This document shows, piece by piece, positions 1 to 60,386 of a stretch of DNA of 64,000 nt (positions within the stretch are counted from its first letter, which is position 1; every line of letters begins with the position of its first letter). The translations under genes were made by a program, and so were the position numbers. The stretch spans positions 18,111,134 through 18,175,133 of the forward strand of contig NC_090404.1 in NCBI RefSeq assembly GCF_036365525.1. Reading direction: 5' to 3'. Source of the DNA: Heterodontus francisci (taxonomy: Eukaryota). The notes beneath the pieces are model-generated. The model saw nothing but the letters and a program-made list of their open reading frames with translations. It did not search any database and was not told where the DNA came from.

Positions 1-2204
1 AAAAAGCACCGATCACAGTGGGGAGAAACTGTACACGTGTTCTGTGTGTGGCCAAGGTTTTAGCCGATCATCTGACCTGTCGAAACACAAGTGTAGTCAC
101 ACTGGGAAGAAACCATGTAAATATGGGGACTGTGGGAAGGGATTGAAGTATCCAGTTGAGCTGGAAACTCATTCACGTAGTCGCACCCTGGAGAGGCCGT
201 TCAACTACTCCGAGTGTGGGAAGGGATTCACTCAATCATCCAACCTGCTGGCACATCAACGGGTTCACGCTGACAAGAGACAGTTTAAATGTCTAGACTG
301 TGGGAATTGCTATTTAGGTTCTGCGGAATTGATGTCCCATCAACGTGTTCACACTTGCGAGACCATTCAGGTCCACTCACTGCGGGACTGGGTTCAGGCA
401 ATCCTCTAATCTCACTGTACGCCAACATATTCACACTGGGGAGAGGCCGTTCACCTGCTCTGAGTGTGGGAAAGGATTCACTCGGTGATCCCATCTGCTG
501 ACACACCAGAGAGTTCACATTGGGGAGAGGCCATTCTCCTGCTCAGAGTGTGGAAAGGGATTCAAAACTTCATCTAGCCTACTGTCACACCAGCGAGTTC
601 ACACTGGGGAGAGGCCATTCTCCTGCTCTGAGCGTGGGAAAGGATTCACTAAGTCATCAAACCTGCTGATACACCAGCGAGTACACACTGGGGAGAGGCC
701 GTTCACCTGCTCTGAATGCGGGAAGGGATTCACTCGTTCCTTCAACCTTCTGACACACCAGCGAGTTCACACTGGGGAGAGGCCGTTCACCTGCTCAGAG
801 TGTGGGATGGGATTCAAAACTTCGTCTAACCTGCTGTCACACCAGCGAGTTCACACTGGGGAGAAGCCGTTTCCCTGCTCAGAGTGTGGGAAGGAATTCA
901 AAACTTCATCCCACCTGCTGAGACACCAGCGAATTCACGTTGGGGAGAGGCCGTTCACCTGCTCAGAGTGTGGGAAGGGATTCAAAACTTCATCCCACCT
1001 GCTGTCACACCAGCGAGTTCACATTGGGGAGAGGCCGTTCACCTGCTCAGAGTGTGGGAACGGATTCAAAACTTCATCGAACCTGCTGTCACACCAGCGA
1101 GTTCACACTGGGGAGAGGCCGTTCACCTGCTCTGAGTGTGGGAAGGGATTCAAAACTTCATCCGAGCTGCAAAGACACCAGCGAGTTCACACTGAGGAGA
1201 GGCCATTCACCTGCTCTGAGTGTGGGAAGGGATTCAAAACTTCATCCGAGCTGCAAAGACACCAGCGAGTTCACACTGAGGAGAGGCCATTCTCCTGCTC
1301 AGAGTGTGGGAAGGGTTTCAAAGCTTCATCCATCCTGCTGTCACACCAGCGAGTTCACACTGGGGAGAGGCCATTCTCCTGCTCTGAGTGTGGGAAAGGA
1401 TTCACTCGGTCATCCCACCTGCTGAAACACCAGCGAGTTCACACTGGGGAGAGGCCATTCACCTGTTCGGTGTGTGGCAAGGAATTCGAAACTTCATCCG
1501 ATCTGCTGAGACACCAGCGAGTTCACACTGGGGAGAGGCCGTTCACCTGCTCAGAGTGTGGAAAGGGATTCAAAAGTTCATCTAACCTGCTGTCACACCA
1601 GCAAGTTCACATTGGGGAGAGGCTGTTCACCTGCTCAGAGTGTGGAAAGGAATTCAAAACTTCATCTAACCTGCTGTCACACCAGCGAGTTCACACTGGG
1701 GAGAGGCCGTTCACCTGCTCAGAGTGTGGGAAGGGATTCACTCGGTCATCCCACCTGATGTCACACCAGCGAGTTCACACTGGGGAGAGGCCATTCACCT
1801 GTTCGGTGTGTGGCAAGGAATTCAAAACTTCATCCAAACAGCTGACACACCAGCGAGTTCACACTGGGGAGAGGCCGTTCACCTGCTCAGAGTGTGGAAA
1901 GGGATTCAAAACTTCATCTAGCCTACTGTCACACCAGCGAGTTCACACTGCGGAGAAGCCGTTCAGCTGCTCAGAGTGTGGTAGGGGATTCAAAACTTCA
2001 TACGAAGTGCTGTCACACCAGCGAGTTCACACTGGGGAGAGGCCGTTCACCTGCTCCAAGTGTGGGAAGGGATTCACTTGTTCATCCACCCTGCTGGCGC
2101 ACCGGCGAGTTCACACTGGGGAGAGGCCGTTCACCTGCTCTGAATGCGGGAAGGGATTCCCTCGGTCCTCCAGTCTTCTGACACACCAGCGAGTTCACAA
2201 GTAG
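1..2204 (+). pseudogene. C2H2 zinc-finger array gene, copy 1 (5' end outside window; disrupted N-terminus; ORF 807-2204 retains ~16-17 fingers)
   Basis: 84-bp repeats encoding CxxC...HxxxH with TGERPF linkers. Frameshift at ~357-362, in-frame TGA at 486-488, Cys>Arg at 633. About 21 core fingers plus 5 degenerate N-terminal ones. Confidence 0.85.
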
Positions 2205-2603
2205 ATCGGGGATGAGAAGTTTCTGCCAAATGGCGGATTTCCAACATTGGGGTTTCGGAAATCAACTAATGGTTTCTCCCTTTCCAACCTTAACTGCTGA
2301 TAGTTCTGATTTTCTTTAATGCCGGTACAACCACAAACCGTTTTTAAGTCGTCTTTGTTTTTTATTTTCTTCCACCTCGGTGGAAATGAGCTTCAACCAG
2401 GAAAGCAAGTGGTTGCAACTGCATACTCCTTCACAACTTTAGTGTGTCAGTCTTCTGTAAATGGCAAAACAGGAGGTGTGTGTATACTCAGAGCAGTCGT
2501 GGGGAAGGGGTCAGAATCATTCATTAAGGAGGCTCTAACTGGTCACTTATAAAAACTCAATGTAATCGGGAATAGTCAGCACAGTTTTGTGAAAGGGAGA
2601 TCA

Positions 2604-4227: not shown

Positions 4228-7200
4228 GGTGAGAACAGAAATTTCAAGAACAGAATAATATGGGGACATTTAAGATGAAATAATTAATCATGTATTACTA
4301 ACAAACTAACTTCGGAGCTGCACAGACAGCTTATCAGTAATGACTTCATAGCTTTAGAGCTTCAGCAGACAGCTTATCAGAAATTAATAGTAGCCTATTC
4401 AGTGCTGTAGGGACAGCTTATCAGTACAAATAGACTAACCAGCAAAAACCTAGCAGGACAGCTGCAGCTGTTGAAGACTAACCCTTTGTATGACAATCAG
4501 CCCAACGTTCCCAGGAGATTCTTTTGGGCCTCCTTATCTCGAGAGACAATGGATACGCGCCTGGAGGTGGTCAGTGGTTTGTGAAGCAGCGCCTGGAGTG
4601 GCTATAAAGGCCAATTCTGGAGTGACAGGCTCTTCCACAGGTGCTGCAGAGAAATTTGTTTGTTGGGGCTGTTGCACAGTTGGCTCTCCCCTTGCGCCTC
4701 TGTCTTTTTTCCTGCCAACTACTAAGTCTCTTCGACTCGCCACAATTTAGCCCTGTCTTTATGGCTGCCCGCCAGCTCTGGCGAATGCTGGCAACTGACT
4801 CCCACGACTTGTGATCAATGTCACACGATTTCATGTCACGTTTGCAGACGTCTTTATAACGGAGACATGGACGGCCGGTGGGTCTGATACCAGTGGCGAG
4901 CTCGCTGTACAATGTGTCTTTGGGGATCCTGCCATCTTCCATGCGGCTCACATGGCCAAGCCATCTCAAGCGCCGCTGACTCAGTAGTGTGTATAAGCTG
5001 GGGGTGTTGGCCGCTTCAAGGACTTCTGTGTTGGAGATATAGTCCTGCCACCTGATGCCAAGTATTCTCCGAAGGCAGCGAAGATGGAATGAATTGAGAC
5101 GTCGCTCTTGGCTGGCATACGTTGTCCAGGCCTCGCTGCCGTAGAGCAAGGTACTGAGGACACAGGCCTGATACACTCGGACTTTTGTGTTCCGTGTCAG
5201 TGCCCCATTTTCCCACACTCTCTTGGCCAGTCTGGACATAGCAGTGGAAGCCTTACCCATGCGCTTGTTGATTTCTGCATCTAGAGACAGGTTACTGGTG
5301 ATAGTTGAGCCTAGGTAGGTGAACTCTTGAACCACTTCCAGAGCGTGGTCGCCAATATTGATGGATGGAGCATTTCTGACATCCTGCCCCATGATGTTCG
5401 TTTTCTTGAGGCTGATGGTTAGGCCAAATTCATTGCAGGCAGACGCAAACCTGTCGATGAGACTCTGCAGGCATTCTTCAGTGTGAGATGTTAAAGCAGC
5501 ATCGTCAGCAAAGAGGAGTTCTCTGATGAGGACTTTCCGTACTTTGGACTTCGCTCTTAGACGGGCAAGGTTGAACAACCTGCCCCCTGATCTTGTGTGG
5601 AGGAAAATTCCTTCTTCAGAGGATTTGAACGCATGTGAAAGCAGCAGGGAGAAGAAAATCCCAAAAAGTGTGGGTGCGAGAACACAGCCCTGTTTCACAC
5701 CACTCAGGATAGGAAAGGGCTCTGATGAGGAGCCACCATGTTGAATTGTGCCTTTCATATTGTCATGGAATGAGGTGATGATACTTAGTAGCTATGGTGG
5801 ACATCCGATCTTTTCTAGTAGTCTGAAGAGACCACGTCTGCTGACGAGGTCAAAGGCTTTGGTGAGATCAATGAAAGCAATGTAGAGGGGCATCTGTTGT
5901 TCACGGCATTTCTCCTGTATCTGACGAAGGGAGAACAGCATGTCAATAGTCGATCTCTCTGCACGAAAGCCACACTGTGCCTCAGGGTAGACGCGCTCGG
6001 CCAGCTTCTGGAGCCTGTTCAGAGCGACTCGAGCAAAGACTTTCCCCACTATGCTGAGCAGGGAGATTCCACGGTAGTTGTTGCAGTCACCGCGGTCACC
6101 TTTGTTTTTATAGAGGGTGATGATGTTGGCATCGCGCATGTCCTGGGGTACTGCTCCCTCGTCCCAGCACAGGCATAGCAGTTCATGTAGTGCTGAGAGT
6201 ATAGCAGGCTTGGCACTCTTGATTATTTCAGGGGTAATGCTGTCCTTCCCAGGGGCTTTTCCGCTGGCTAGGGAATCAATGGCATCACTGAGTTCCGATT
6301 TGGTTGGCTGTATGTCCAGCTCATCCATGACTGGTAGAGGCTGGGCTGCATTGAGGGCAGTCTCAGTGACAGCATTCTCCCTGGAGTACAGTTCTAGGTA
6401 GTGCTCAACCCAGCGGTCCATCTGTTTGCGTTGGTCAGTGATTATGTCCCCCGATTTAGATTTGAGGGGGGTGATCTTCTTGATGGTTGGCCCAAGAGCT
6501 CTCTTCATGCCATCATACATTCCTCTGATGTTTCCGGTGTCTGAGGCCAGCTGAATATGACTGCATAGGTGTTGCCAGTAGTCGTTTGCGCAACGCCTAG
6601 CTGTTCTTTGTGCAGTACTTCTGGCTGCTTTAAGTGCTGCGGATGTTAAATCGCTGGGGGCTTTCTTGTAGTTCAAAAGTGCAATGCGCTTAGCGGCTAT
6701 GACAGGTTCCAGCTCTTCATTATGAGATTCAAACCAGTCTGCATTTCTCTTCGCACTTTTGCCGTAGGTGGTCAAAGCTGACTCATAGATGGCGTCTCTG
6801 ATGTGGGCCCACTTGGTCTCAGCATCCCCTGTGGGAGTGTTTTGAAGGGCTGTTACAAGTGAATTTAGAAATTTTTGTAACAGCTGTGGGTGAGAAATTC
6901 TGCTCGTGTTGATGCGCGGGTGGCCCTTCTGCTTGGAATGATGCAACTTCTTTGGTCTGAGTCTAACCTTGCTGCACACCAGGGAGTGGTCGGTGTCGCA
7001 GTCCGCACTGTGGAAGCTGCGTGTGATTTGAACACTGTTTAAGGCGGCTCGCCTTGTGACAATGAGGTCTAGCTGGTGCCAACGACGTGATCTTGGGTGC
7101 CTCCATGAAACCTGGTGACAGGGTTTAGTGTGAAAGAACGAGTTGGTGATGCAGAGGATATGATAGGTACACAACTCAAGCAGTCTCTGCCCGTTCTCAT

Positions 7201-7947
7201 TCATCCTTCCAACGCCATAGCGCCCAAGGCAGGAGGGCCATGAGTCATGGTCAGCCCCAACCCTGGCATTAAAGTCCCCCAGCAGGAATAGGTGTTCGGT
7301 GTTGGGGATGCTGCTAATGATATGGAGTTGTTCATAGAACTGGTCTTTAGCTTCAGGTGCGGAGCAGAGTGTTGGAGCATAGATGCTGAGTAGGTGTACT
7401 GGACCAGAGGTGGTGAGCAGTCGGATGGACAGTATGCGTTCCGAGCCATTTGAGGGAGGCTCTATCATGCTGAGCAAGGAGTTTCTGATGGCGAAGCCCA
7501 CTCCATGCTGTCTTGGTTCTTCAGGATCCCTGCCCTGCCAGAAGAAGGTGTAGTCTTGCTCTGCTAGAGAGCCACTCGCGGGGAGGCGAGTCTCCTGAAG
7601 TGCTGCAATGTCCACAATGTCCCAGGAGATAGGGGAATAAGAAACTGCTTGAGGAGAGGGCGACAAGGCAGTGCCCCAATCAGGCCCTGACACCAAGAAA
7701 CTGCAAAGTTTGTGAACCAATTGGGAACATAAAGGGGGTGTCACTAATTTGTGAGAAGAACTATAAGAAAGGCTTGAATTCCCTCCTCCAGCACGGAGGA
7801 AGAGGGAGGAGAGCCCAGGTGTTGTTGTTGTTCGCTTTGCTGATGATGTAACCACTAAGTACTACAATAAAGTTTCTTAAAGCTCCAGTCGGACTTCGTC
7901 TCTTTTTGGTGTAACCAATGAGAACATAAAAAAACTGAGATCCAACA
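4228..7947 (+). mobile_element. ERV solo LTR (~610 bp) split by an RTE insertion
   Basis: CAGAC 5-bp TSD (4223-4227 / 7948-7952), ends CCAACA, TATAAG and AATAAA (7866). Same LTR as the provirus at 62408. Confidence 0.9.
4520..7619 (-). mobile_element. Young near-full-length RTE-clade LINE (APE endonuclease + RT; one in-frame TAG at 5792-5794)
   Basis: ALQETR, LGDFNARVG, TDH (EN); NYRGISLL, FIDLTKAFD, FADD (RT). 11-bp TSD TCCCAGGAGAT (4509-4519 / 7620-7630). ORFs 5792-7855 and 4571-5758 are in the same frame. Confidence 0.95.
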
Positions 7948-9253: not shown

Positions 9254-12200
9254 CAAGGCAGCTAAAATGGCCAACTGAGACCTGGTCCCTTTTAATACAA
9301 AGCAAGCTAACTGGAAAAGCACTTGAGGTTTATTCCTTGTTTCCAGGTGGGAGTTCATCACATTATGAACTGACCAAAAATGCTATCTTCGGGCATATGA
9401 ATTTAGTACCCAAAGCCTGCCGCCAAAAGTTTAGAACCCTCAAAAAGCAAGCTAATCAAACTTATCTGGAGGTAAGCAGCTGGCTTTTGACCAGTGGATG
9501 AGGGCTCTTAAAATACAGCTCAGCTATGAGACTCTCTGAGGAGTAATTCTGTTAGAGGAATTTAAAAACTCTCTCCCACTCTCAATAAAGACCCATGTAG
9601 AGGAGCAGTGGGTTCAGGGAGCCCGGCAAGCGGCCGTTCTGGTTGATGAGTTTTCTTTAATATGTAAGTCCGTTTCCCAGGGGAGAACCTTTCCTAATCA
9701 CCTCCACAAATCCAAAAAGGACAAAGGGTGGGAAGGTGATCTCCGCCCAGCCAATCCTGAGAGAGAAAGGAAAGCAGGAGACACAGGGGGCCCTCCTCCA
9801 GCCAAGAGGGAAGGTGCTGTGAGCAAGAGTGAGACCTGGAGACCTGTGTGATTCCATTGTAATAAAGCAGGGCATTTAAAAGCTGACTGCTGGAAACTAA
9901 AGGGGAAACCAATAGGTTTAATCAGGGCACACCTGCTCAGTGAACACAGGGACCTGATGCAAAGCACAGCAGAACAAGCTGTGGCTTTAACTACAGTAAG
10001 AGTCAGACCCAGGAAGATTACTACGGCCAGTGCAGGAAAAGCTAATAGGATTCCTGAAGGTTATCAGGGTTTTGTGTCTGAAGGGAAAGTAACCGCATAC
10101 CCCTTGAGTGGGGCAAGCAAGCCCATAGTGATTCTTTGGGACCACGAGATCCCTTCTTAGGGACACAGGGGCCACTTGATCTCTTTTACTGGGAAAAGGC
10201 CTGACCTTTCCCCCAGAGCGTGCAGTGAACACCAACATGGTGGTGAATGGTATTGGAGGTCAGTGTATGCCTGTACCTGGACACCGGGTGCACTTGGAGT
10301 GTGACCTAGTTTCGGGATCGGTGACCGTAGGGATTGTCCCTAGTTTGCCTGTGGACAGGGTTGACCTGCTCCTAGGTAACGGTCTGTTGGCGGTGAAGGT
10401 GGTAGTCCCCCAGACGTGAAAGAAAGACCGCAGGAGGTCAGAGAGACAGGGCTGTGGCAGGAGACGGTTCCCTGCAGTTTCCCTAAATGTGTAGTGGATC
10501 AGGCCATGAGCAAACCAGTTCCTGCAGAGGAGACTGCAATGGCACTGTGTGCAAATGAGCTCGAGGTCTGCCTGTCCGAGACTTTCTTTGGAAAGTTAGG
10601 AGACCCAGGGAATGAATTAAATGGATTTTCCCGAGGTGAGGCTCAGCGAGCCGACCCAGTATTGCGAGAGTTAGCACGCTGCCCAGTCTGAAAGTGAAGC
10701 AGAGGGAGTCCCTGATTGCTACTATTTAAAAATGAGGTACTGATGAGGAAATGGAATTCTCCTCACAGACCTGAGGGAAAAGAGTGGACAGTAGTTCATC
10801 AGTTCATTGTGCTACAGAGGTACTGGGGAGAAATATTGAGAAAGGCCCATGTGACTGAACATGCCGGTATATGAAAGACCAAAGCCCACATAAGACAGTA
10901 GTTTGACTGGCCAAAACTCCACAAAGATGTGGTGGAGTACTGCAGGAGTTGCTACATGTGCCAGGTTGAGGAGAAACACCAACCTACAGTGAAACCTCCT
11001 CAGTCCTGTACCGGTGATAGGAGGACCCTCCAGCCAAGGGCTGGTGAACTGTACAGGATCCATGCTGAGAACAAAAGGGGACAAGCAGGCACATGGCTGG
11101 CATAGATTTGGAAAGAGAAGGGGAAAACGTGACCAAGAGGGCAGGTTAAAGAAAGTCCGGGAGGAATCCGGATAAAAACCCCTACTGTGTGGTCAGCCAA
11201 CCACAAAAAATTTGAAAAGTTAGACCCCGCCTCTCAGTGGCACAGATACATGAGGGTGATGCCTCACCTAGTCGAAGTGCCAAGGGAGAGTGCAGTCGAG
11301 TCTGCACACATAGCTGCAGGTAGGAGTGTCCCAGAGAACAGAGGGGAGTTTAACAAAGAATCCTCCCCCACAGTCAGAGGAAAAGTGCACCACCTATCCC
11401 CTGAAGGCAAAAGGCTTTGCATGATTCAGCAAACCACTGAGAGAGAGTTCAGGATAGACCCACCCACCACTAACTCTTGGGGGAAAAAAATGACCCGAAA
11501 AGGAACAAAACCTGAGGCAGTCATGGCAATGGGCAAACTGAAGAAAAGCTTCCCCTGAAAGAACTACCTGGTTACTGGGATGCCAAAAAAGGGGACATTA
11601 AAGCAACACCGGCACCCAGAAAAGACAATTCTAATTGGCTTTAAGATTGCTGAAGGAATGGAAATGAATGAGAGAAATGTATCTTATATTTCTCTCAAAA
11701 TTGTAATGAAATGTGCCATTTTTTTTTCAAATTGCATTTCATTCCCCTGGGTGTGGAGGTGTCATGCAGGCCCCCACCTGCCAAGAATGAGACACATTAA
11801 TTTTGCCACATGGACATTAAAACTTATCGTCGTTGCTGGGAAGAAAAGAGGGCCGATCACAAGGAATTGCCAGGCCCCTCATCAGAAAGGCCTTTTCTGC
11901 ATACTGGCAGACAGCATTGGAACAAAGGATCCAGTCCCTGCTTCCCAATACAGAGAAGACGTGGTCAGACCAGTTTAGTCACATGACTAACTGGCTGTGG
12001 CAGGAATTTGAACTTGCCACAGAGTTTTGAACTGAAACTCAGAAAGCTGTTTGCTCCTGGACTGAAAAGACCTCTCTCCTTTCTGCTCTCATTTCTTTCT
12101 CACCAGCTTTGGAATCCATTGAAGATACAGGAACCCCAAGAGAGAAATGTCTCCTACAGTGAACAAGGTTTAAGACTATCGGGCCCCAACGAAAAGCAAG

Positions 12201-12619
12201 AATAACTTACAAGCAAGAACTACCTACAAAAGGACTGCAATGAGCCCGAAGCACAGTAACAAGAAACTCTTCTGATATTGCCTCAAACTTCTCCACTTTA
12301 TTTTTTTCTTCCACTCTTTTCTGTCTCTACTTGCATGTGCATATTGCATATGCATGCAAACTTGGGGCACGACGTGTATCCATAGTTTCTTAACCGAATT
12401 AGAGTTTAAGTTTAAATTTTAATAAATTTCACTTTTCTTCTTTGAACCTAAGAAGGCCTGTCTGTGTCATTTCTTTGCTTTATAATTGGAAAGCAGTGAT
12501 CAAGGATTCGCTAAGGGGGAGCTCAAAACACACCGTGTTTAAAAATTAATTCATGTTACAGTAAGATCAGGTGAAGGCTGAAAGACACCCCTAGACATCT
12601 TTCTCACCTGGTCGTAACA
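9254..12619 (+). mobile_element. Degenerate Gmr1-like Ty3/gypsy LTR element (gag-PR-INT zinc finger, RT absent, 3' LTR only)
   Basis: Gag WSLLIQSKLTGKA, RQKFR, ILLEEFKNSL and CCHC knuckle; protease LRDTGA and DLLLGN; then directly the integrase HHCC region (WPKLHKDVVEYCRSC..CQ); PPT followed by LTR. Confidence 0.8.
11760..12619 (+). mobile_element. 3' LTR of the Gmr1-like element
   Basis: TGTCAT...GTAACA termini, purine-rich GGGTGTGGAGG immediately upstream, internal AATAAA. Confidence 0.85.
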
Positions 12620-13695
12620 TTATGGAATTGGCTGAGTGACAGGAAACAAAGAGTAGTGGTGAAGAGATGTTTTTCAGGCTGGAGGAAGGTTTGTAGTGGA
12701 GAACCCCAGAGGTCAGTGTTGGGACCTTTGCTTTTCCTGATATATATTAATGGTCTAGACCTTGGTGTACAGGACACAATTTAAAAGTTTGCAGATGATA
12801 TGAAACTTGGAAGCATTGAGAACTGAGGAGGCTAGTGTAGAATTCAAAAAGGACACAGACAAGTTGGTGGAATGGGCCGACAGGTGTCAGATGAAGCTCA
12901 ATGCAGAGGTGAGAAGTGATTCATTTTGGTAGGAAGAACATGGAGACACAGTATAAAATAAAGGCAACAATTCTAAAGGGGGTGCAGGAGCAGAGGGACC
13001 TGGGTGTATACGTGCATAAGTCATTGACGGTGTTAGGATAGGGTGAGAGAGCAGTTAATAAAGTATACAGCATCCTCGGCTTTATTAACAGAGGAATAGT
13101 GGACAAGAGCAAGGAAGATATGTTGAAGTTGTGGATGACACTAGTTTGACCTCAGCTGGTGTATTGCGTCCAGTTCTGGGTGCCGCACTTTCAGAAAGAC
13201 GTGTGGGCATACGGAAAAACATTTACAAATGGTTCCAAGTATTAGGAACTTCAGTTATGAAGACAGATTTAAGAAGTTAAGACTGTTTTCCTTGGAGAAG
13301 AGAAGGCTGAGAGGTGATTTGAAAGAGGTATTCAAAATAATGAGGGGTCTGGACAGAGTAGATCGAGAGAAACTCTTCCCACTGGTGAAAGGATCGAGAA
13401 CCAGAGGGCACAGATTTACAGTATTTGGGAAGAGAAGCAAAAGTGACATGAGGGAAAACTTTTTCATGTAGCTCGTGGTTAAGGTCTGGAATGTGCTGCC
13501 TGAGAGTGCGGTGGAGGCAGGTTCAGTGAAAGCATTCAAAAGGGAAATAGACTGTTGTTTGGAAAGGAAGAATGTGCAAGGTTATGGGGAGAAGATGGGG
13601 GAATGGAACTGAATGCATTGCTCTTTCGGAGAGCAGGTACGGACACAATGGGACGAATGGCCTCCTCCTGCACTGGAACAATTCTGTGATTCTGC
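12620..13695 (+). mobile_element. Old CR1 LINE 3' fragment (host B)
   Basis: NWLSDRKQRVVV, SVLGPLLFLIYIN, KFADD, LFSLEKRRLRGD; ends in a TTCTGTGATTCTG tail. Confidence 0.88.
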
Positions 13696-13696
13696 A

Positions 13697-14070
13697 AGCC
13701 CGCCGCCCTCTCCCCCGCGACCACCTCCCCCTCGGATTCAGACCGGTCTGGTCGCGCATGCTCACCTCACACCGCCCGCCAGGCTGATGGACATCAGTTC
13801 CGGACCAATTGGAAGAGCCGTGGGGGGGGGGGCGGGGCTGGATGCCAGCTCGGGCCACGGGTCCTCCAAGGAATCGGAGCTTGCGAGGGGGCGGGGCCTC
13901 GGAAATGTCCCGCCCCACTCGCGCTCTTGGTCGGCAAAGGCCGTCATAGACACGGAAATTGCGTTCTCAGGTCAGAGATCAAGAGACTTGTGCGCAGACT
14001 CGTTTTCCTCCTGGGCTGTTTTACTGGAGTCGTGTTGCTGAGTGTGTCTAAACTCTGTCTCCCTATCCCG
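13697..14070 (+). promoter_or_regulatory. CpG-island promoter and non-coding exon 1 of ZF copy 2
   Basis: CpG-rich; GCGCATGC (NRF1-like), CCAATTGG, GGGGCGGGG GC boxes, CGGAAAT (ETS-like). Candidate donor CCG|GTAATG at 14071; conserved in all units. Confidence 0.7.
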
Positions 14071-14182
14071 GTAATGTCGGTGGATTGGAGGTTGCTGTGA
14101 GTGTTGGACTATGTTGCCTTTCCTCATTCTTCCTCCTTCTCCCACTCCGAGTTCCAGGCTGCAGGCTCTGGTGGCTCAATGC

Positions 14183-14305
14183 ACCTGTAACGTTAACCCT
14201 GTTTCTCTCTCCACAGATGCTGCCTGACCTGCTGAGCATTTCCAGCATTTCCTCCTTTTAATTTCAGATTTTCAGCATCCCCAATATTTTGGTTTTATTT
14301 TATTG
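14183..14305. mobile_element. Short interspersed-repeat fragment resembling a Penelope-like terminal repeat (also ~32604, ~44736, ~56548)
   Basis: ACGTTAAC..TTTCTCTCTCCACAGATGCTGCCTGACCTGCTGAG..TTTCCAGCATT motif. Family assignment is from recollection, not a search. Confidence 0.45.
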
Positions 14306-14640
14306 CAAGTGTTGCTCACAGAACTGAGTCAAGAAACACAGACGGACCAGTTAAGAGCTGGTGTTTATTGGGAGTGGGAGTTGGATGTGGCATTTGCTCT
14401 CTAACCTCCTGTGTTGGTCTTTTTTGTTGCATCAGTTTGATCTGGAGTGGAGATGGAGGAGAAGCAGCTTTAATCCCGAGAACTTGTGAGCCCAGTCGGG
14501 CCCAACAGTTTCCAATGTGAGACGGTCAAGGGTGGGGAGGCCGCTCAATAAACACCAACCACTCAATGTGAAAGAGTATTGTTTCAGTAACAAGTATTTC
14601 TGTGGAGGCTTTTAAGCCATTTTACATATACAGAAGTTGT

Positions 14641-15776: not shown

Positions 15777-16116
15777 TGGATGATGGAAGTTGAGGGTTTG
15801 GGAGGTTCTGTCAAAGTTCTGGTCGAGTTGTACATATATGAAATACCTCTCCTCTCCCTGCCCCTCCTCCTCCCTCTCTTTCCTCCCAAAGAGAGCAGAG
15901 TCTTGTGTAGGTCCAGACTGGGTGGGAACTTCCCTTCCCTGAAGGACATTAATGAACCAGTTGGGTTGTACATCAATCCAGCAGCTTTCATGGTCACTTT
16001 TTCTCGTACTGCCCCCAAAAATTACCAGATTCATTCAGCTCCATTTCACACACTGCCTTTGTGTTTTTGTGAGTTCTGTCACAATTTTTTTTTCTGTTTT
16101 TAAATCAATTTCACAG

Positions 16117-32113: not shown

Positions 32114-32115
32114 CA

Positions 32116-44217: not shown

Positions 44218-44219
44218 CG

Positions 44220-44623: not shown

Positions 44624-45396
44624 GTAATGTCGGTGGATTGGAGGTTGCTGTGAGTGTTGGACTATGTTGCCTCTCCTCATTCTTCCTCCTTCTCCCACTC
44701 CGAGTTCCAGGCTGCAGGCTCTGGTGGCTCAATGCACCTGGAACGTTAACCCTGTTTCTCTCTCCACAGATGCTGCCTGACCTGCTGAGCATTTCCAGCA
44801 TTTCCTCCTTTTAATTTCAGATTTTCAGCATCCCCAATATTTTGGTTTTATTTTATTGCAAGTGTTGCTCACAGAACTGAGTCAAGAAACACAGACGGAC
44901 CAGTTAAGAGCTGGTGTTTATTGGGAGTGGGAGTTGGATGTGGCATTTGCTCTCTGACCTCCTGTGTTGGTCTTTTTTGTTGCATCAGTTTGATCTGGAG
45001 TGGAGATGGAGGAGAAGCAGCTTTAATCCCGAGAACTTGTGAGCCCAGTCGGGCCCAACAGTTTCCAATGTGAGAGGGTCAAGGGTGGGGAGGCCGCTCA
45101 ATAAACACCAACCACTCAATGTGAAAGAGTATTGTTTCAGTAACAAGTATTTCTGTCGAGGCTTTTAAGCCATTTTACATATACAGAAGTTGTTCCTTCA
45201 TTCTTGGGAGATGGCCGTCACTAGCCAGACCAGCATATATTGCCAGTCCCGTGCTGTCCATTGAGATGGTGATGGTGGGCCTTCTTCTTAAACCGCTGCA
45301 GTCCGTGTGGTGAAGGTGCTCCCACAATGGTGTTAGGGAAGGAGTTACAGGATTTTCACCCAGTGATGATGAAGGAATGGTGATATATGTCCAAGT

Positions 45397-46257
45397 TAAC
45401 ATCAACTTGTATTTAAACTGCACCTTTAATGTAATAAAATGTACCAGAGCATTTCACAGGAGTGTTAGAAAGCAACATTTGACACTGAGCCACATAAGAT
45501 ATTTGGGCAGATGATCAAAACCTTGATCAAAGAGATGTGTTTTAAGAAGTGTCTAAAGCATGGAAGGTGAGGCAGAGAGGATTAGGGAGGGATTTCCAAA
45601 GCTTATGGCCTTGGCAGCTGACGTCACGGCCACCTGTGATGGAGGAATGAAAAGCAGGGATGCTCAAGATGTCAGAATTAGATGAGCCCTGATCTCTCGG
45701 AGGGTTGTAGGTCTGGAGGAGATTATAGAGATAGTGAGGGGCGAGGGCATGGAGGGATTTGAAAGCAAGGATGAGGATTTTGAAATTGAGGTGCTGCTTA
45801 ACTGGGAGCCTGTGTAGGCCAGTGAGCACAGTGGTGATGTGTGAACAGGACTGGGTTCAAGTAAGTACACAGGTAGCAGAGTTTTGGATGATCTCAAGTT
45901 TACAGAGGGTAGAATGTGGGAGGCCGGCCAGGCGTGTGTTAGAATAGTCAAGTTGAGAGGTAACAAATACATGGATGTAAGTTTCAGAGGTAGATGAGCT
46001 GAGGCACTGGTGATGTCACTGAGGTGGAAATAGGCGGTCTGAGTGATGGCGCCGACATGCAGTCGGAATCTCATCTCGGGGTCAAATATGACACTAAGGT
46101 TATGAACAGTCCGGTTTAGCCTCAGACAGTTTCCAGGGAGAGGGATAGAGTTGGTGACTAGGGAGAGGAATTTGTAGCAGGAACTGAAGACAATGGCTTC
46201 AGACTTCCCAATATTTAATTGGAGGTAATTTCTGTTCATCCAGTACTGGATGTCAGA
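45397..46257 (-). mobile_element. L2 fragment, intron of copy 4
   Basis: Paralogous to 14844-15699. Confidence 0.85.
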
Positions 46258-46672
46258 CAAGTCAGGATGGTGTGTGACTTGGAGGGCAACTTGGAGGTGA
46301 TGGTGTTTGCGCACACCTGATACCCTGGTTTTCTGGATGATGGAAGTTGAGGGTTTGGGAGGTTCTGTCAAACGTCTCGTCGAGTTGTACATATATGAAA
46401 TACCTCTCCTCTCCCTGCCCCTCCTCCTCCCTCTCTCTCCTCCCAAAGAGAGCAGAGTCGTGTGTAGGTCCAGACTGGGTGGTAAGTTCCCTTCCCTGAA
46501 GGACATTAATGAACCAGTTGGGTTGTACATCAATCCATCAGCGTTCATAGTCACTTTTTCTCGTACTGCCCCCTAAAATTACCAGATTCATTCAGCTCCA
46601 TTTCACACCCTGCCTTTGTGTTTTTGTGAGTTCTGTCACAATTTTTTTTTCTGTTTTCAATCAATTTCACAG

Positions 46673-49600
46673 GGTTTTCGAAGGGGAGGAATTGCAGCCG
46701 TGAAATGCAAAGCAAACATCTGATCGGGATCTGAAGTCGTTGCCTAATTTAGCGGAACCCGAAAACCACCGGATTTTGAACGTGTTGGGAAAAAGCACCG
46801 ATCACAGTGGGGAGAAACTGTACACGTGTTCTGTGTGTGGCCAAGGTTTTAGCCGATCATCTGGCCTGTCGAAACACAAGTGTAGTCACACTGGGAAGAA
46901 ACCATGTAAATATGGGTACTGTGGGAAGGGATTGAAGTATCCAGTTGAGCTGGAAACTCATTCACGTAGTCGCACCCTGGAGAGTCCGTTCACCTACTCC
47001 GAGTGTGGGAAGGGATTCACTCAATCATCCAACCTGCTGGCACATCAACGGGTTCACGCTGACAAGAGACATTTTAAATGTCTGGACTGTGGAAATTGCG
47101 ATTCAGGTTTTGCGGAATTGATGTCCCATCAACGTGTTCACACTGACGAGACCATTCAGGTCCACTCACTGCGGGACTGGGTTCAGGCAATCCTCTGATC
47201 TCACTGTACACCAACATATTCACACTGGGGAGAGGCCGTTCACCTGCTCTGAGTGTGGGAAAGGATTCGCTCAGTTATCCACGCTGCTGATACACGAGCA
47301 AGTACACACTGAGGAGATGCCGTTCACCTGCTCTGAATGCGGGAAGGGATTCACTCGGTCCTTCAATCTTCTGACGCACCAGCGAGTTCACAATGGGGAG
47401 AAGCCGTTCACCTGCTCAGAGTGTGGGAAGGGATTCAAAACTTCATCTAGCCTGCTGTCACACCAGCGAATTGACATTGGGGAGAGGTCATTCACCTGCT
47501 CAGAGTGTGGGAAGGGATTCAAAACTTCATCCCACCTGCTGAGACACCAGCAAGTTCACATTGGGGAGAGGCCGTTCACCTGCTTAGAGTGTGGAAAGGG
47601 ATTCAAAACTTCATCTAACCTGCTGTCACACCAGCAAGTTCACATTGGGGAGAGGCCGTTCACCTGCTCAGAGTGTGGGAAGGGATTTAAAACTTCATCT
47701 AACCTGCTGTCACACCAGCGAGTTCACATTGGGGAGAGGCCATTCACCTGTTCACAGTGTGGGAAGGGATTCAAAACTTCACCCCACCTGCTGAGACACC
47801 AGCGAGTTCACACTGGGCAGAGGCCATTCACCTGCTCAGAGTGTGGGAAGGGATTCAAAATTTCATCCCACCTGCTGAGACACCAGCGAGTTCACACTGG
47901 GGAGAGGCCATTCACCTGCTCAGAGTGTGGGAAGGGATTCAAAACTTCATCCACCCTGCTGATACACCAGCGAGTTCATTCTGGGGAGAGGCCATTCTCC
48001 TGCTCTGAGTGTGGGAAAGGATTCACTCGGTCATCCCATCTGCTGACACACCAGCGAGTTCACACTGGGGAGAGGCCATTCTCCTGCTCTGAGTGTGGGA
48101 AAGGATTCACTCGGTCATCCAATCTGCTGACACACCAGCGAGTTCACACTGGGGAGAGGCCATTGTCCTGCTCAGAGTGTGGGAAAGGATTCACTCAGTT
48201 ATCCACCCTGCTGACACACCAGCGGGTTCACACTGGGGTGAGGCTGTTCACCTGCTGTGAATGCGGGAAGGGATTCACTTGGTCCTTCAACCTTCTGACA
48301 CACCAGCGAGTTCACACTGGGGACAGGCCATTCAACTGCTCAGAGTGTGGAAAGGGATTCAAAACTTCATCTAACCTGCTGTCACACCAGCGAGTTCACA
48401 TTGGGGAGAGGCCGTTCACCTGCTCAGAGTGTGGAAAGGGATTCAAAACTTCATCTAACCTGCTGTCACATCAGCGCGTTCACACTGGGGAGAGGCCGTT
48501 CACCTGTTCTGAGTGTGGTAGGGGATTTAAAACTTCATCTAACCTGCTGTCACACCAGCGAGTTCACATTGGGGAGAGGCCGTTCACCTGCTCAGAGTGT
48601 GGAAAGGGATTCAAAACTTCATCTAACCTGCTGTCACATCAGCGCGTTCACACTGGGGAGAGGCCGTTCACCTGTTCTGAGTGTGGTAGGGGATTTAAAA
48701 CTTCATCTAACCTGCTGTCACACCAGCGAGTTCACATTGGGGAGAGGCCGTTCACCTGCTCAGAGTGTGGAAAGGGATTCAAAACTTCATCTAACCTGCT
48801 GTCACACCAGCAAGTTCACACTGGGGAGAGGCCGTTCACCTGCTCTGAATGTGTGGAAGTGAGCAGAACGACATGGCACTATGCTGGATGGGAAATATAG
48901 CCAAGTTAGGAGTAGTCACTTTGCTGAGCTCTGATGAAATGATTTAAAGCTTGAGAAACTGCAATGAAATAGTTAAAAGTAAAGGCTGAGAGTGTGAGAT
49001 CGTATAAACTTACAGGCACTGGTAATTGCAAGGACATTTATTCATTCATGACTTGATTGTGTGACTCCTTGTGGTTTGGAACAAATGGATTCCTGTGAGA
49101 GATGCTGGCCATCCCTGTGTGAGTGATGATAAGGAATGAAAGGCCACACTATCACTGTATACTGTTGCTGCTTGGTGTTACTTCATGATGTGACTTGATA
49201 GAGATTACAGGATCCCAGGACTTATGACAATTGTGGGAAGCAAAAGCAGTATCTGTGGGAATCAAAATCAGTATCTTGTTTCTAACTCCTCTTCCTTTGC
49301 TAATTGTCTTAATGTCTGTTTTCTTTTAATCTTGCTGATACAAAACGATATTTTATTAGTAACAAGTATGTATTGAGAATGGAGTGTATTGTAACCTCAG
49401 TAACAGATGTACTGCATGTCACCACGTGGGTGAAGTCGAATTGTACCGCACTGATTGGTTAAACAAGGAGGTGTAGCATGAATCTTAATGTATAAACAGT
49501 AGTACCTGTATCACAAACTTCACTTACTCTGGGGGGGGACCCGACAGACTCTGGTGGAGTCAGTGCCGCTGTTCTCAGAGTAAGTCCGCTGGCGACTGCG

Positions 49601-49746
49601 CAAATAAAGTAATTGATTTTACCTACACATCCGACTCGGTATATTTACTGAACCAGACTGAAGGCAAAAAGAACTCAGATTTACAAATGCGGGAAGGGAT
49701 TCCCTCGGTCCTCCAGTCTTCTGACACACCAGCGAGTTCACAAGTA
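46673..49746 (+). pseudogene. C2H2 zinc-finger array gene, copy 4 (19 intact core fingers; last finger split by an LTR)
   Basis: ORF 47134-48900 reads into the LTR. The ancestral end GGGAAGGGATTCCCT...CACAAGTAG resumes at 49690. Shared frameshift at ~47148. Confidence 0.8.
48852..49685 (+). mobile_element. Solo LTR (834 bp) of a second LTR family
   Basis: TGT...ACA termini, 4-bp TSD AATG (48848-48851 / 49686-49689), ATTGG 49454, TATAAA 49491, AATAAA 49603. Confidence 0.92.
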
Positions 49747-50036
49747 GCTCGAGGATGAGAAGTTTCTGCCAAATGGCGGATTTCCAACATTGGGGTTTCG
49801 GAAATTTACCACTGGCTTCTCCCTTTCCAACCTTAACCACTGATAGTTCTGATTTTCTTTAATGCCGGTACAACCACAAACCGTTTCTAAGTCGTCTTTG
49901 TTTTTTATTTTCTTCCACCTCGGTGGAAATGAGCTTCAACCAGGAAAGCAAGTGGTTGCAACTGCATACTCCTTCACAACTTCAGTGTGTCAGTCTTCTG
50001 TAAATGGCAAAACAGGAGGTGTGTGTATACTCAGAG

Positions 50037-54982: not shown

Positions 54983-56057
54983 TTATGGAATAGGCTGAGT
55001 GACAGGAAACAAAGAGTCGTGGTTAAGAGATGTTTTTCAGGCTGGAGGAAGGTTTGTAGTGGAGTTCCCCAGGGGTCAGTGTTGGGACCTTTGCTTTTCC
55101 TGATATATATTAATGGTCTAGACCTTGGTGTACAGGACACAATTTAAAAGTTTGCAGATGATATGAAACTTGGAAGCATTGAGAACTGAGGAGGCTCGTG
55201 TAGAATTCAAAAAGGACACAGACAAGTTGGTGGAATGGGCCGACAGGTGTCAGATGAAGCTCAATGCAGAGGTGAGAAGTGATTCATTTTGGTAGGAAGA
55301 GCATGGAGACACAGTATAAAATAAAGGCAACAATTCTAAATGGGGTGCAGGAGCAGAGGGACCTGGGTGTATACGTGCATAAGTCATTGACGGTGTTAGG
55401 ATAGGTTGAGAGAGTAGTTAATAAAGCAGACAGTGTCCTCGGCTTTATTAGCAGAGGAATAGTGGACAAGAGCAAGGAGGTTATGCTGAAGTTGGAGATG
55501 ACACTAGTTTGACCTCAGCTGGTGTATTGCGTCCAGTTCTGGGTGCCGCACTTTCAGAAAGACGTGAGGGCATACGGAAAAACATTGACAAATGGTTCCA
55601 AGGATTAGGAACTTCAGTTATGAAGACAGATTTAAGAAGTTAAGACTGTTTTCCTTGGAGAAGAGAAGGCTGAGAGGTGATTTGATAGAGGTATTCAAAA
55701 TAATGAGGGGTCTGGACAGAGTAGATAGAGAGAAACTCTTCCCACTGGTGAAAGGATCGAGAACCAGAGGGCACAGATTTACAGTATTTGGGAAGAGAAG
55801 CAAAAGTGACATGAGGGAAAACTTTTTCATGTCGCTCGTGGTTAAGGTCTGGAATGTGCTGCCTGAGAGTGCGGTGGAGGCAGGTTCAATTAAAGCATTC
55901 AAAAGGGAAATAGACTGTTGTATGGAAAGGAAGAATGTGCAAGGTTATGAGGAGAAGGTGGGGGAATGGAACTGAATGCATTGCTCTTTCGGAGAGCAGG
56001 TACGGACACAATGGGACGAATGGCCTCCTCCTGCACTGGAACAATTCTGTGATTCTG
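54983..56057 (+). mobile_element. CR1 host B, unit 4
   Basis: Paralogous to 12620-13695. Confidence 0.87.
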
Positions 56058-56435
56058 CAAGCCCGCCGCCCTCTCCCCCGCGACCACCTCCCCCTCGGAT
56101 TCAGACCGGTCTGGTCGCGCATGCTCACCTCACACCGCCCGCCTGGCTGATGGACATCAGCTCCGGACCAATTGGAAGAGCGGTCGGGGGGGGGCGTGGC
56201 TGGAGGCCAGCTCGGGCGACGGGTCCTCCAAGGAATCGGAGCGCGCGAGGGGGGCGGGGCCTCCCCGTCCTGACCCGCCCCACTCGCGCGATTGGTCGGC
56301 AAGTGCCGTCATAGACACGGAAATTGCGTTCTCAGGTCAGAGATCAAGAGCCGTGTGCGCAGACTCGTTTTCCTCCTGGGCTGTTTTACTGGAGTCGTGT
56401 TGCTGAGTGTGTCTAAACTCTGTCTCCCTATCCCG
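56058..56435 (+). promoter_or_regulatory. CpG-island promoter/exon 1 of ZF copy 5
   Basis: Same motifs as the other promoters; donor GT at 56436. Confidence 0.7.
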
Positions 56436-57205
56436 GTAATGTCGGTGGATTGGAGGTTGCTGTGAGTGTTGGACTATGTTGCCTCTCCTCATTCTTCCTC
56501 CTTCTCCCACTCCGAGTTCCAGGCTGCAGGCTCTGGTGGCTCAATGCACCTGGAACGTTAACCCTGTTTCTCTCTCCACAGATGCTGCCTGACCTGCTGA
56601 GCATTTCCAGCATTTCCTCCTTTTAATTTCAGATTTTCAGCATCCCCAATATTTTGGTTTTATTTTATTGCAAGTGTTGCTCACAGAACTGAGTCAAGAA
56701 ACACAGACGGACCAGTGAAGAGCTGGTGTTTATTGGGAGGGGGTGTTGGATGTGGCATTTGCTCTCTGACCTCCTGTGTTGGTCTTTTTTGTTGCATCAG
56801 TTTGATCTGGAGTGGAGATGGAGGAGAAGCAGCTTTAATCCCGAGAACTTGTGAGCCCAGTCGGGCCCAACAGTTTCCAATGTGAGAGGGTCAAGGGTGG
56901 GGAGGCTGCTTAATAAACACCAACCACTCTGTGAAAGAGTATTGTTTCAGTAACAAGTATTTCTGTCGAGGCTTTTAAGCCATTTTACATATACAGAAGT
57001 TGTTACTTCATTCTTGCTAGATGGCCGTCACTAGCCAGACCAGCATTTATTGCCAGTCCCGTGCTGTCCATTGAGATGGTGATGGTGGGCCTTCTTCTAA
57101 ACCGCTGCAGTCTGTGTGGTGAAGGTGCTCCCACAATGGTGTTAGGGAAGGAGTTACAGGATTTTCACCCAGTGATGGTGACGGAATGGTGATATATGTC
57201 CAAGT

Positions 57206-58065
57206 TAACATCAACTTGTATTTATATCGTACCTTTAATGTAATAAAATGTACCAGAGCATTTCATAGGAGTGTTATAAAGCAACATTTGACACTGAGCC
57301 ACATAAGAAGATATTCGGGCAGATGATCAAAACCTTGATCAAAGAGATGTGTTTTAAGAAGTGTCTAAAGCATGGAAGGTGAGGCAGAGAGGATTAGGGA
57401 GGGATTTCCAAAGCTTATGGCCTTGGCAGCTGAAGTCACGGCCACCTGTGATGGAGGAATGAAAAGCAGGGATGCTCAAGATGTCAGAATTAGATGAGCC
57501 CTGATCTCTCGGAGGGTTGTAGGGCTGGAGGAGATTATAGAGATAGTGAGGGGCGAAGGCATGGAGGGATTTGAAAGCAAGGATGAGGATTTTGAAATTG
57601 AGGTGCTGCTTAATGGAGAGTCTGTGTAGGCCAGTGAGCACAGTGGTGATGGGTGAACAGGACTGGTTACGAGTAAGGACACAGGTAGCAGAGTTTTGGA
57701 TGATCTCAAGCTGACAGAGTAGAATGTGGGAGGCCGGCCAGGGATGTGTTAGAATAGTCAAGTTGAGAGGAAAGAAATGCATGGATGTCAGTTTCAGAGG
57801 TAGATGAGCTGAGACAGTGGTGATGTTACTGAGGTGGAAATAGGCGGTCTGAGTGATGGCACCGATTTGCAGTCGGAATTTCATCTCGGGGTCAAATATG
57901 ACTAAGGTTATGAACAGTCCAGTTTCGCCTCAGACGGTTTCCAGGGAGAGGGATAGAGTTGGTGACTAGAGAGAGGAATTTGTAGCAGGAACTGAAGACA
58001 ATGGCTTCAGACTTCCCAATATTTAATTGGAGGTAATTTCTGTTCATCCAGTACTGGATGTCAGA
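57206..58065 (-). mobile_element. L2 fragment, intron of copy 5
   Basis: Paralogous to 14844-15699. Confidence 0.85.
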
Positions 58066-58586
58066 CAAGTCAGGATGCTGCGTGACTTGGAGGGCAACTT
58101 GGAGGTGATGGTGTTTGCGTACACCTGATAACCTGGTCCTTCTGGATGATGGAAGTTGAGGGTTTGGGAGGTTCTGTCAAAGTTCTGGTCGAGTTGTACA
58201 TATATGGAATACCTCTCCTCTCCCTGCCCCTCCTCCTCCCTCTCTCTTTCCTCCAAAAGAGAGCAGAGTCTTGTGTAGGTCCAGACTGGGTGGTAAGTTC
58301 CCTTCCCTGAAGGACATTAATGAACCAGTTGGGTTGTACATCAATCAGCAGCTTTCATGGTCACTTTTTCTCGTACTGCCCCCAAAAATTACCAGATTCA
58401 TTCAGCTACATTTCACACACTGCCTTTGTGTTTTTGTGACTTCTGTCACAATTTTTTTTTCTGTTTTTAAATCAATTTCACAGGATTTTCGAAGGGGAGG
58501 AATTGCAGCCGTGAAATGCAAAGCAAACATCTGATCGGGATCTGAAGTCGTTGCCCAATTTAGCGTAACCCGAAAACCACCAGATT

Positions 58587-60386
58587 TTGAACGTGTTCGG
58601 AAAAAGCACCAATCACAGTGGGGAGAAACTGTACACGTGTTCTGTGTGTGGCCAAGGTTTTAGCCGATCATCTGGCCTGTCGAAACACAAGTGTAGTCAC
58701 ACTGGGAAGAAACCATGTAAATATGGGGACTGTGGGAAGGGATTGAAGTATCCAGTTGAGCTGGAAACTCATTCACGCAGTCGCACCCTGGAGAGTCCGT
58801 TCAACTACTCCGAGTGTGGGAAGGGATTCACTCAATCATCCAACCTGCTGGCACATCAACGGGTTCACGCTGACAAGAGACATTTTAAATGTCGAGACTG
58901 TGGGAATTGCTGTTTAGGTTCTGTGGAACCGATGTCCCATCAACGTGTTCACACTGACAAGAGACCATTCAGGTCCACTCACTGCGGGACTGGGTTCAGG
59001 CAATCCTCTGATCTCACTGGACACCAACATATTCACACTGGGGAGAGGCCGTTCACCTGCTCTGAGTGTGGGAAAGGATTCGCTCAGTTATCCACCATGC
59101 TGACACACCAGCGAGTTCACACTGGGGAGAGGCCCTTCACATGCTCTGAATGCGGGAAGGGATTCACTCAGTCCTTCAACCTTCTGACACACCAGCGAAT
59201 TCACACTGGGGAGAGGCCGCTCACCTGCTCTGATTGTGGGAAGGGATTCAAAACTTCATCCGAGCTGCAAAGACACCAGCGAGTTCACACTGAGGAGAGG
59301 CCATTCTCCTGCTCTGAGTGTGGGAAGGGATTCAAAACTTCATCCGAGCTGCAAAGACACCAGCGAGTTCACACTGGGGAGAGGCCATTCTCCTGCTCTG
59401 AGTGTGGGAAAGGATTCGCTCAGTTATCCACCATGCTGGCACACCAACGAGTTCACACTGGGGAGAAGCCGTTCACCTGCTCAGAGTGTGGAAAGGGATT
59501 CAAAACTTCATCTAACCTGCTGTCACACCAGCAAGTTCACACTGGGGAGAGGCCATTCACCTGCTCTGAGTGTGGGAAGGGATTCACTCGGTCATCCCAC
59601 CTGCTGACACACCAGCGAGTACACACTGGGGAGAGGCCATTCACCTGCTCTGAGTGTGGGAAGGGATTCACTCGGTCATCCCACCTGCTGAGACACCAGC
59701 GAGTACACACTGGGGAGAGGCCATTCACCTGTTCGGTGTGTGGCAAGGAATTCAAAACTTCATCCAAACAGCTGACACACCAGCGAGTTCACACTGGGGA
59801 GAGGCCGTTCACCTGCTCAGAGTGTGGAAAGGGATTCAAAACTTCATCTAGCCTGCTGTCACACCAGCAAGTTCACACTGGGGAGAGGCCGTTCACCTGC
59901 TCAGAGTGTGGAAAGGGATTCAAAACTTCATCTAGCCTACTGTCACACCAGCGTGTTCACACTGCGGAGAAGCCGTTCAGCTGCTCAGAATGTGGTAGGG
60001 GATTTAAAACTTCATACGAAGTGCTGTCACACCAGCGAGTTCACACTGGGGAGAGGCCGTTCACCTGCTCAGAATGTGGGATGGGATTCACTCATTCATC
60101 CACCCTGCTGGCGCACCGGCGAATTCACACTGGGGAGAGGCCGTTCACCTGCTCCGAGTGTGGGAAGGGATTCACTTGTTCATCCACCCTGCTGGCGCAC
60201 CGGCGAGTTCACACTGGGGAGAGGCCGTTCACCTGCTCCGAGTGTGGGAAGGGATTCACTTGTTCATCTAACCTGCTGAAACACCAGCGAGTTCACACTG
60301 GGGAGAGGCCGTTCACCTGCTCTGAATGCGGGAAGGGATTCCCTCAGTCCTCCAGTCTTCTGACACACCAGCGAGTTCACAAGTAG
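58587..60386 (+). CDS. C2H2 zinc-finger protein, copy 5 (only continuous frame; 5 partly degenerate + 16 core fingers)
   Basis: 599-aa open frame; GACAAGAGACCA lacks the 2-bp deletion. Start uncertain: GTG at 58593, first ATG at 58932. Confidence 0.8.

Follow-up and report, generated by a model that had tools for sequence, protein, structure and literature searches.

Finger-array turnover among five damaged zinc finger gene copies in what is probably a KRAB-less shark cluster

Several systems of C2H2 zinc finger (ZF) genes have been described in which the fingers change quickly, and they are the natural yardsticks for the locus that concerns us here, a 64-kb stretch of Heterodontus francisci DNA (the window, by which we mean the whole stretch) containing five head-to-tail copies, U1 to U5, of one two-exon C2H2 gene, all on the + strand. 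The PRDM9 minisatellite, in the available text of PMC5519329 and PMC3890296, resembles the locus in its 84-bp coding repeat, its concerted evolution, its variation at helix positions -1, 3 and 6 and its changes in copy number, but the KRAB, SSXRD and SET domains of PRDM9 are not in our locus, which is a multi-copy cluster. Tetrapod KRAB-ZFP and SCAN-ZFP clusters, as far as the open portion of PMC4592553 describes them, share tandem duplication, birth and death, surroundings rich in transposable elements (TEs) and selection on contact residues; unlike them, the locus is without KRAB, and what it has of SCAN-like sequence is the broken remnant of a gag that has not been fused to the fingers. The cyprinid FiNZ-ZNFs (PMC10547256) and ray-finned fishes' KRAB-like ZNFs (PMC11603059), again on the text available for each, are non-tetrapod, clustered, two-exon genes with the array in the last exon and positive selection on the fingers, all of which recalls what we see here. 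FiNZ itself, however, denotes a 28-aa conserved domain that the upstream exon encodes, whereas here exon 1 contributes just eight codons and the leader that opens exon 2 is stopped, and in other sharks' models unrelated peptides precede the same exon boundary. The locus belongs neither to PRDM9 nor to the KRAB-ZFPs and would not seem to belong to FiNZ, though it shares birth and death with clusters of the last two kinds. It appears, from its sequence relationships, to be a member of a shark family of KRAB-less ZF genes, and in our opinion the window is probably a mostly pseudogenised part of an ordinary, fast-evolving birth-and-death cluster of that family and not a new defence system.

The relatives that support this placement are shark 'zinc finger protein 271-like' and '239-like' genes, which are KRAB-less tandem C2H2 genes with the same leader, first fingers and apparent exon boundary; the members compared were P0007 and P0020 of Heterodontus francisci, XP_078425778.1 and XP_078426599.1 of Cetorhinus maximus and P0124 of Pristiophorus japonicus. 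The best identities among 120 listed matches to residues 1-200 are with shark proteins (64, 63 and 59%), as are the ZF matches of the leader, so the non-tetrapod context proposed in a sequence-only reading of this DNA holds good. Compared with six cartilaginous-fish proteins, the core arrays of this locus have greater length and homogeneity, with an array statistic P (that of PMC5519329) of 0.37-0.41 as opposed to 0.19-0.27, and they use a helix set of KT type that none of the six has; set against the shark KRAB-less relatives, all five copies here are damaged. The arrays lie in last exons with TGEKP-type linkers and the copies are recent head-to-tail duplicates, some of them pseudogenised, as in other tandem C2H2 clusters. 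Clusters of recent ZF duplicates are described, in the accessible part of PMC11979771, on catshark chromosomes 13 and 17, and the available text of PMC8455134 reports that cartilaginous fishes have lost KRAB families. PMC10547256 deals with TE-linked ZNF evolution across animals and does not use the word 'shark' in its main text, although its supplements may hold shark counts, and we found no study of shark tandem ZF clusters or their array turnover in the open-access literature, supplements aside. The locus offers a worked case of array turnover in the tandem ZF clusters of cartilaginous fish.

We turn next to the coding state of the copies. Intact genes are not supported, and the sequence-only reading overlooked damage in every unit, whether by stops, frameshift, a GTG start or insertion of a long terminal repeat (LTR). 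In all four complete units the frame from the exon-1 ATG runs continuously into exon 2 and ends after 17 codons, codon 18 being a stop, and the usual start codon reads GTG at all four complete 5' ends, leaving 4/4 with no open frame from the exon-1 ATG or from a usual ATG start. In other shark leaders the place of this stop is occupied by Gly, and the GTG corresponds to a Met that starts, or lies within, other shark models. A second leader stop is found in U2, U3 and U5, and a 2-bp deletion ahead of the core shifts the frame in U1 to U4. Taken singly, U1 has this deletion near 358, a stop within the first core finger (486-488) and, in the third, a Cys-to-Arg change; U2 has leader stops TGA 16145-16147 and TAA 16199-16201, its GTG at 16226, the deletion near 16592 and a stop in the last core finger (18420-18422); U3 has the leader stops and GTG as in U2, the shared deletion and an additional 1-bp deletion near 34936; U4 has a sole leader stop (TGA 46701-46703), the GTG, the shared deletion and a last finger into which a solo LTR has inserted; and U5 has leader stops TGA 58512-58514 and TAA 58566-58568. 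The N-terminal fingers of U4 (46790-47223) are 1.15% from those of U2 while the intron is 3.7% away, which suggests that the shared 2-bp deletion was passed between units by conversion. Only U5 is open through its array, with a continuous frame of 605 codons (58569-60386), in which the first in-frame ATG, at 58932, would give 484 aa, and a GTG start at 58593 would yield 597 aa. We would picture an ancestor that lost its leader frame and usual start codon before the amplification, with U1 to U4 now presumably pseudogenes and U5 able at most to make, from a weak start, a protein of 16 fingers with no effector.

How, then, did the arrays come to differ? The repeat unit was copied head to tail, and the 84-bp tandem arrays now run to 21.1, 20.6, 27.1, 19.5 and 16.1 copies in U1 to U5. 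Earlier counts of 21, 21, 27, 20 and 16 fingers were right for four arrays, U4 having 19 fingers plus one that the LTR has split; the core arrays themselves are real, but each has upstream of it five further, N-terminal fingers, three of them degenerate. Among 104 core fingers there are 43 distinct helices, every helix named before being one of them, so that a shared vocabulary is confirmed. The order in which it is used is another matter, since it had been said to differ between copies and for the most part does not: finger-level alignment is collinear in 6/6 pairs of U1, U2, U3 and U5, with 0 of 200 order shuffles as good for each, and only U4 is weakly collinear (11, 15, 0 and 2 of 200 shuffles as good in its four pairings). 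Free shuffling of finger order is thereby excluded. U3 is a chimera, its fingers 1-20 and upstream sequence being like U2 (0.7-1%) and its fingers 21-27 like U5, with six fingers at 0 differences from U5 and 2 differences in 392 over the next ~390 bp downstream; it is the product of an in-register crossover at homologous fingers, between arrays already missing different blocks. Fingers 15-16 of U4 are duplicated exactly as 17-18. Within the 84-bp unit, site pairs that fail the four-gamete test rise from 0.19 at 1-6 bp to 0.51 over 30 bp (a trend matched in 0 of 2000 permutations), and because incompatibility rises with distance this indicates recombination inside fingers. Array lengths change, in short, through whole-finger gain and loss, the U3 crossover between units and short patches of inter-finger conversion, so the minisatellite-like turnover first proposed is well founded, with the finger order largely preserved. 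Amino-acid variation peaks at -1, 3, 6 and -2, as expected of variation said to lie mainly in helix codons, but scaffold third positions also vary a great deal and position +2 is almost fixed (Ser in 94/104 fingers).

It is helpful to place this degree of homogenisation on a scale. Among 115 fetched comparison proteins, which are not species-matched, P has 0.28 as its median and reaches 0.38 at the 95th percentile, and median finger amino-acid identity is 0.63, as against 0.77-0.79 here; three bat PRDM9-like proteins reach identities of 0.82-0.83 and P of 0.40-0.52. On this comparison set the locus is PRDM9-like in its array dynamics and weaker in degree. Two gar ZF proteins with no listed KRAB or SET (P0045 and P0077) have P of 0.42-0.44 and finger identity of 0.78-0.81, and homogenised arrays without PRDM9 domains thus appear to occur in ray-finned fish too.

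Selection has to be considered at two depths. Pooled synonymous diversity among fingers is 0.22 in the 74 of 104 fingers used for the omega values by class of site (30 were dropped, being recent twins or, in two cases, carrying stops; the split U4 finger is excluded everywhere), compared with 1-5% in the flanks, and the helix vocabulary would therefore predate the unit duplications. Dividing pairwise dN by pooled dS gives 3.5 at -1/3/6, 0.42 at +2, 0.27 in the scaffold and 0.02 at the ligands, and tree-parsimony omega is 2.5, 0.45, 0.51 and 0.06 respectively, with the proviso, found also in the available text of PMC5519329, that the tree-based figure assumes one tree and conversion violates that assumption. 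The comparison of helix with scaffold that had been proposed as a check returns an old excess at -1/3/6 (~2.5) and strongly conserved ligands (0.06), but does not extend to +2, where an omega of 0.45 rules out a diversifying site. The ancestor probably functioned as a DNA-binding protein in which -1/3/6 were positively selected and the fold was kept by purifying selection.

Recent change looks different. In 19 in-register pairs of U1 and U3 fingers (aligned pairs with at most 6 differences, one pair with 8 excluded), contact codons differ at 8.2% of sites compared with 2.7% elsewhere and a contact residue differs in 11/19 pairs, which might be taken as the mark of a living family without a head, in which fingers-only proteins start from the GTG or an internal ATG, above all in U5, and the core arrays bind TEs or compete with other ZFs while selection keeps specificities supplied by conversion. 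The open U5 frame with its 16 intact fingers favours this idea, as do the sharp contrast between a decayed head and an intact core, and values of P and finger identity above those of most of the 115 comparison proteins; moreover, the stops lie in the last exon, where junction-dependent decay would not apply. Yet 42/52 of the U1/U3 differences involve alleles that other fingers also have, and the share of these reused alleles at contact codons is 0.33, against a neutral-conversion expectation of 0.32 (p 0.37-0.54), the expectation being the share of array-wide diversity at contact codons. On these sequences neutral conversion would suffice for recent helix change. In U5 the first in-frame ATG has five others ahead of it, the fifth of which overlaps it, U1 to U4 bear frameshifts, stops or the LTR, and the one RNA-like exon-junction contig displayed (see below) carries a U2/U4-type base, not that of U5. 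We consider a living headless family unlikely. Private mutations in 76 fingers (28 of the 104, recent twins, being dropped here and in the ligand set) comprise 27 replacement or stop and 10 silent changes, an omega of 0.70 (p 0.21), so that new point mutations are near neutral; with the match to neutral conversion, this gives no support to ongoing selection in these copies. Helix changes would now be mostly a neutral re-dealing of old alleles, and there is a wider caution here: since neutral conversion of old alleles can produce fast contact-residue change between paralogues, such change alone is no proof of an ongoing arms race.

Several observations do, in fairness, weigh against calling these copies dead. 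Zinc ligands are lost at 4/20 N-terminal positions but at only 2/416 core positions, so that 414/416 core ligands are intact (Fisher p 1.5e-4 over 76 fingers, which are not independent of one another), and private replacement changes at ligands and the core Phe number 5 where the flank rate predicts 18 (Poisson p 3e-4, or p 0.07 given the lower overall count); because of this retention and this deficit, some constraint may persist or may have ended recently. Close within-array pairs give a lower contact share, 0.23, and the neutral null therefore depends on which fingers act as donors. Promoters and splice sites are intact in 4/4 complete units, and the five copies seen belong to what is probably a larger cluster. 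Intact ligands would also be expected if conversion tracts arrive from selected copies, and this leads to another idea, namely that the broken copies serve, or are retained, as donors of helices for intact paralogues in other parts of the cluster. Exchange between units is demonstrated by the U3 chimera and by the N-terminal fingers of U4, and many other family members exist, but there is no intact sibling within the window, private mutations are near neutral and exchange by itself is no proof of benefit; we regard a donor role as distinctly improbable, and decay of most of these copies as the better account.

What might once have stood at the head of these proteins? A 17-sequence KRAB profile, which finds 82/120 control proteins, gave a best E of 1.5 across six frames of the window (the region upstream of U1 lies beyond it), and a 5-sequence PR/SET profile a best E of 6.7 over the same frames. 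Searching with tblastn, 114 N-terminal regions found no match in the window at E 0.01, an insensitive result because even the SCAN remnants were not found. A SCAN profile run over the six frames recovers three of the gag remnants at E <0.03, with a weak match to the remaining one of the four, and Pfam PF02023 (SCAN) matches at E 1e-5 and 3e-3, both under the curated cut-off, with a zinc knuckle adjacent. The earlier statement that no KRAB, SCAN or SET is recognisable is thus right for KRAB and SET, while SCAN-like sequence does exist, in the form of broken Gypsy gag remnants. Since these matches share the strand of the genes and stand ~4.5 kb upstream of every promoter, and the copy between U4 and U5 is matched by RNA-like contigs at 0 differences, one could imagine an incipient SCAN-ZF gene, with gag remnant spliced to ZF exon in a repetition of the amniote origin of SCAN. 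The SCAN part is, however, frameshifted or deleted in 4/4 copies, a separate CpG promoter and exon 1 stand between gag remnant and ZF exon, the ZF exon opens with the leader stop, and no intact SCAN exon joined to fingers was found, either in the four broken remnants or as a join among the 15 of 796 joints listed; we find this idea exceedingly improbable.

The sole candidate for a head is a leader of ~45 residues at the start of exon 2, conserved among sharks, to which this locus draws attention. Of its six matches, three are ZF proteins, from Cetorhinus maximus and Pristiophorus japonicus, and the rest are unrelated repeat proteins; identity in these two other shark genera is 50-58% (E 8e-10 to 4e-6). 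Pristiophorus models have differing peptides before the leader boundary, and the Heterodontus models (P0007, P0020) start downstream of the leader. Word searches for the leader gave 0 matches from 6 and 11 candidates, which is weak evidence, and a best Atlas score of 0.82, at chance level. From its sequence, the leader may be a domain or a conserved 5' untranslated region. By analogy only, the family's role might be sequence-specific binding of repeats or TEs, and one may go further and imagine a shark TE-tracking ZF system, comprising a headless subfamily with PRDM9-like micro-conversion, broken copies as a helix library for living copies like U5, and a leader serving elsewhere in the family as an effector analogous to FiNZ; this remains speculative, and we doubt it.

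The gene structure, at least, is settled. Each of U2 to U5 has a CpG island (GC 0.61-0.63, observed/expected CpG 0.76-0.89 compared with 0.41 for the window; 0.76 at the U2 promoter and 0.84 at that of U5), and its two exons, a short exon 1 and a single ZF exon, are separated by a GT..AG intron of 2020-2027 bp. The joint 56462/58486 occurs in three of four sequencing runs examined over 50900-59120, namely X1, X2 and X9, but does not show in X5, which is DNA-like; it fits the predicted intron if the second base of exon 2 is G, as displayed for X9, whose junction contig there has the U2/U4 state and not that of U5. The RNA nature of X1, X2 and X9 is a program's guess, X1, X2 and X5 come from one sample, the short side of the joint has 28-35 bases, counting in X5 is incomplete and 15 of 796 joints are listed; read in that light, the joint supports family-level splicing in two organisms and is assignable to no particular copy. 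A donor site 26 bases further upstream gave way to the one the RNA-like joint indicates, and the joint 56600/58457 was discarded as splice evidence, having 13 foreign letters and non-canonical ends and occurring in the DNA run too. Read depth over the ZF exon sums paralogues and is not taken as expression. Over 58600-59120 the majority of contigs carry letters other than U5's at fixed sites, and many further family members therefore exist. The Gypsy remnant between U4 and U5 (51387-54639) has RNA-like contigs from X1/X2, with 0-2 differences and depth 26-79, which could be read-through, pre-mRNA or DNA carry-over.

The base repeat unit is ~12-13 kb and consists of promoter, short exon 1, 2-kb intron, single ZF exon and TE remnants (Table 1). 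ZF exon starts are spaced at 16.2, 18.4, 12.1 and 11.8 kb from U1 to U5, the extra length in the longer spacings being insertions confined to single units. Near-identity of the flanks, noticed early on, is real (93-99% identity, 0.5-5.3% divergence by block). Very similar tandem repeats are prone to assembly error, and a single locus inflated by mis-assembly has to be thought of; but units 0.5-5.3% apart, with private TE insertions that have target duplications, one empty site, and public contigs identical to one specific copy over 125-239 bases, make this very improbable. An Rfam search of the window gave 0 matches.

Table 1. Features of the five units and of the elements inserted in them (window coordinates; promoter starts are approximate)
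Feature	Position	Strand	Remarks
U1 rest of ZF exon	1..2204	+	5' end of exon beyond window edge
U1 core array	435-2198	+	21 fingers
RTE-like LINE (long interspersed nuclear element)	4520..7619	-	only in U1; 11-bp target duplication
Decayed Gypsy LTR retrotransposon	9290..12620	+	gag remnant with SCAN-like and zinc-knuckle parts; integrase-like remnant; 3' LTR-like end
U2 CpG-island promoter and exon 1	13690..14096	+	ATG 14074 in frame with exon 2
U2 intron	14097..16116	+	GT..AG, 2020 bp; shares homology with the U5 intron, which is seen joined
U2 exon 2, coding part	16117..18437	+
U2 core array	16668-18431	+	21 fingers
Further Gypsy copy	~22412-31040		split by CR1
CR1-like LINE	24888..30201	-	only in U2; open ORF2 (open reading frame 2; 971 codons), esterase-type ORF1
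U3 promoter and exon 1	32110..32517	+	ATG 32495
U3 intron	32518..34544	+
U3 exon 2	34545..37368	+
U3 core array	35095-37362	+	27 fingers
Further Gypsy copy	~40505-43600		5' deleted
U4 promoter and exon 1	44240..44649	+	ATG 44627
U4 intron	44650..46672	+
U4 exon 2	46673..49747	+
U4 core array	47224-48819	+	19 fingers; 20th split by insertion
Solo-LTR-like insertion, U4 last finger	48852..49685		834 bp; TG..CA, 4-bp target duplication, AATAAA 49603
Further Gypsy copy	~51422-54980
U5 CpG-island promoter and exon 1	56050..56461	+	ATG 56439
U5 intron	56462..58483	+	GT..AG, 2022 bp
U5 exon 2	58484..60386	+
U5 core array	59037-60380	+	16 intact fingers
U5 LTR with internal sequence	62408..64000	+	~610-bp LTR (62408-63017), primer-binding-site-like motif, gag-like frame

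The TE insertions confined to single units show that the units are exposed to TEs, and not that the two have co-evolved. The Gypsy element we take to be Gmr1-like, in part from the literature, and an order of protease-like then integrase-like regions is that of Gmr1-like elements. In the remnant at 10050-11050 an integrase-like region follows a protease-like region with no reverse transcriptase between them, an adjacency that could also stem from deletion. SCAN is described, in the available text of PMC4592553, as derived from a Gmr1-like gag. The RTE-like LINE of U1 is 5'-truncated, has one in-frame stop and sits within that unit's solo LTR, and an older RTE 3' fragment (2590-3829, +), 93% similar to it, is found in U1, U2, U3 and U5, ~390 bp past the ZF stop codon. 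The CR1-like LINE looks young, has a 204-bp repeat at its 5' end (5.9 copies, 99% identity) and deleted ~17 bp on insertion, leaving no target duplication. The motif beside the U5 LTR that resembles a primer-binding site is presumably of tRNA-Ser type. Finally, one LTR site occurs in three states, being empty in U4 (~50530), a solo LTR in U1 to U3 (copies ending at 7947, 21069 and 39989, with a 5-bp target duplication) and an LTR with internal sequence in U5.

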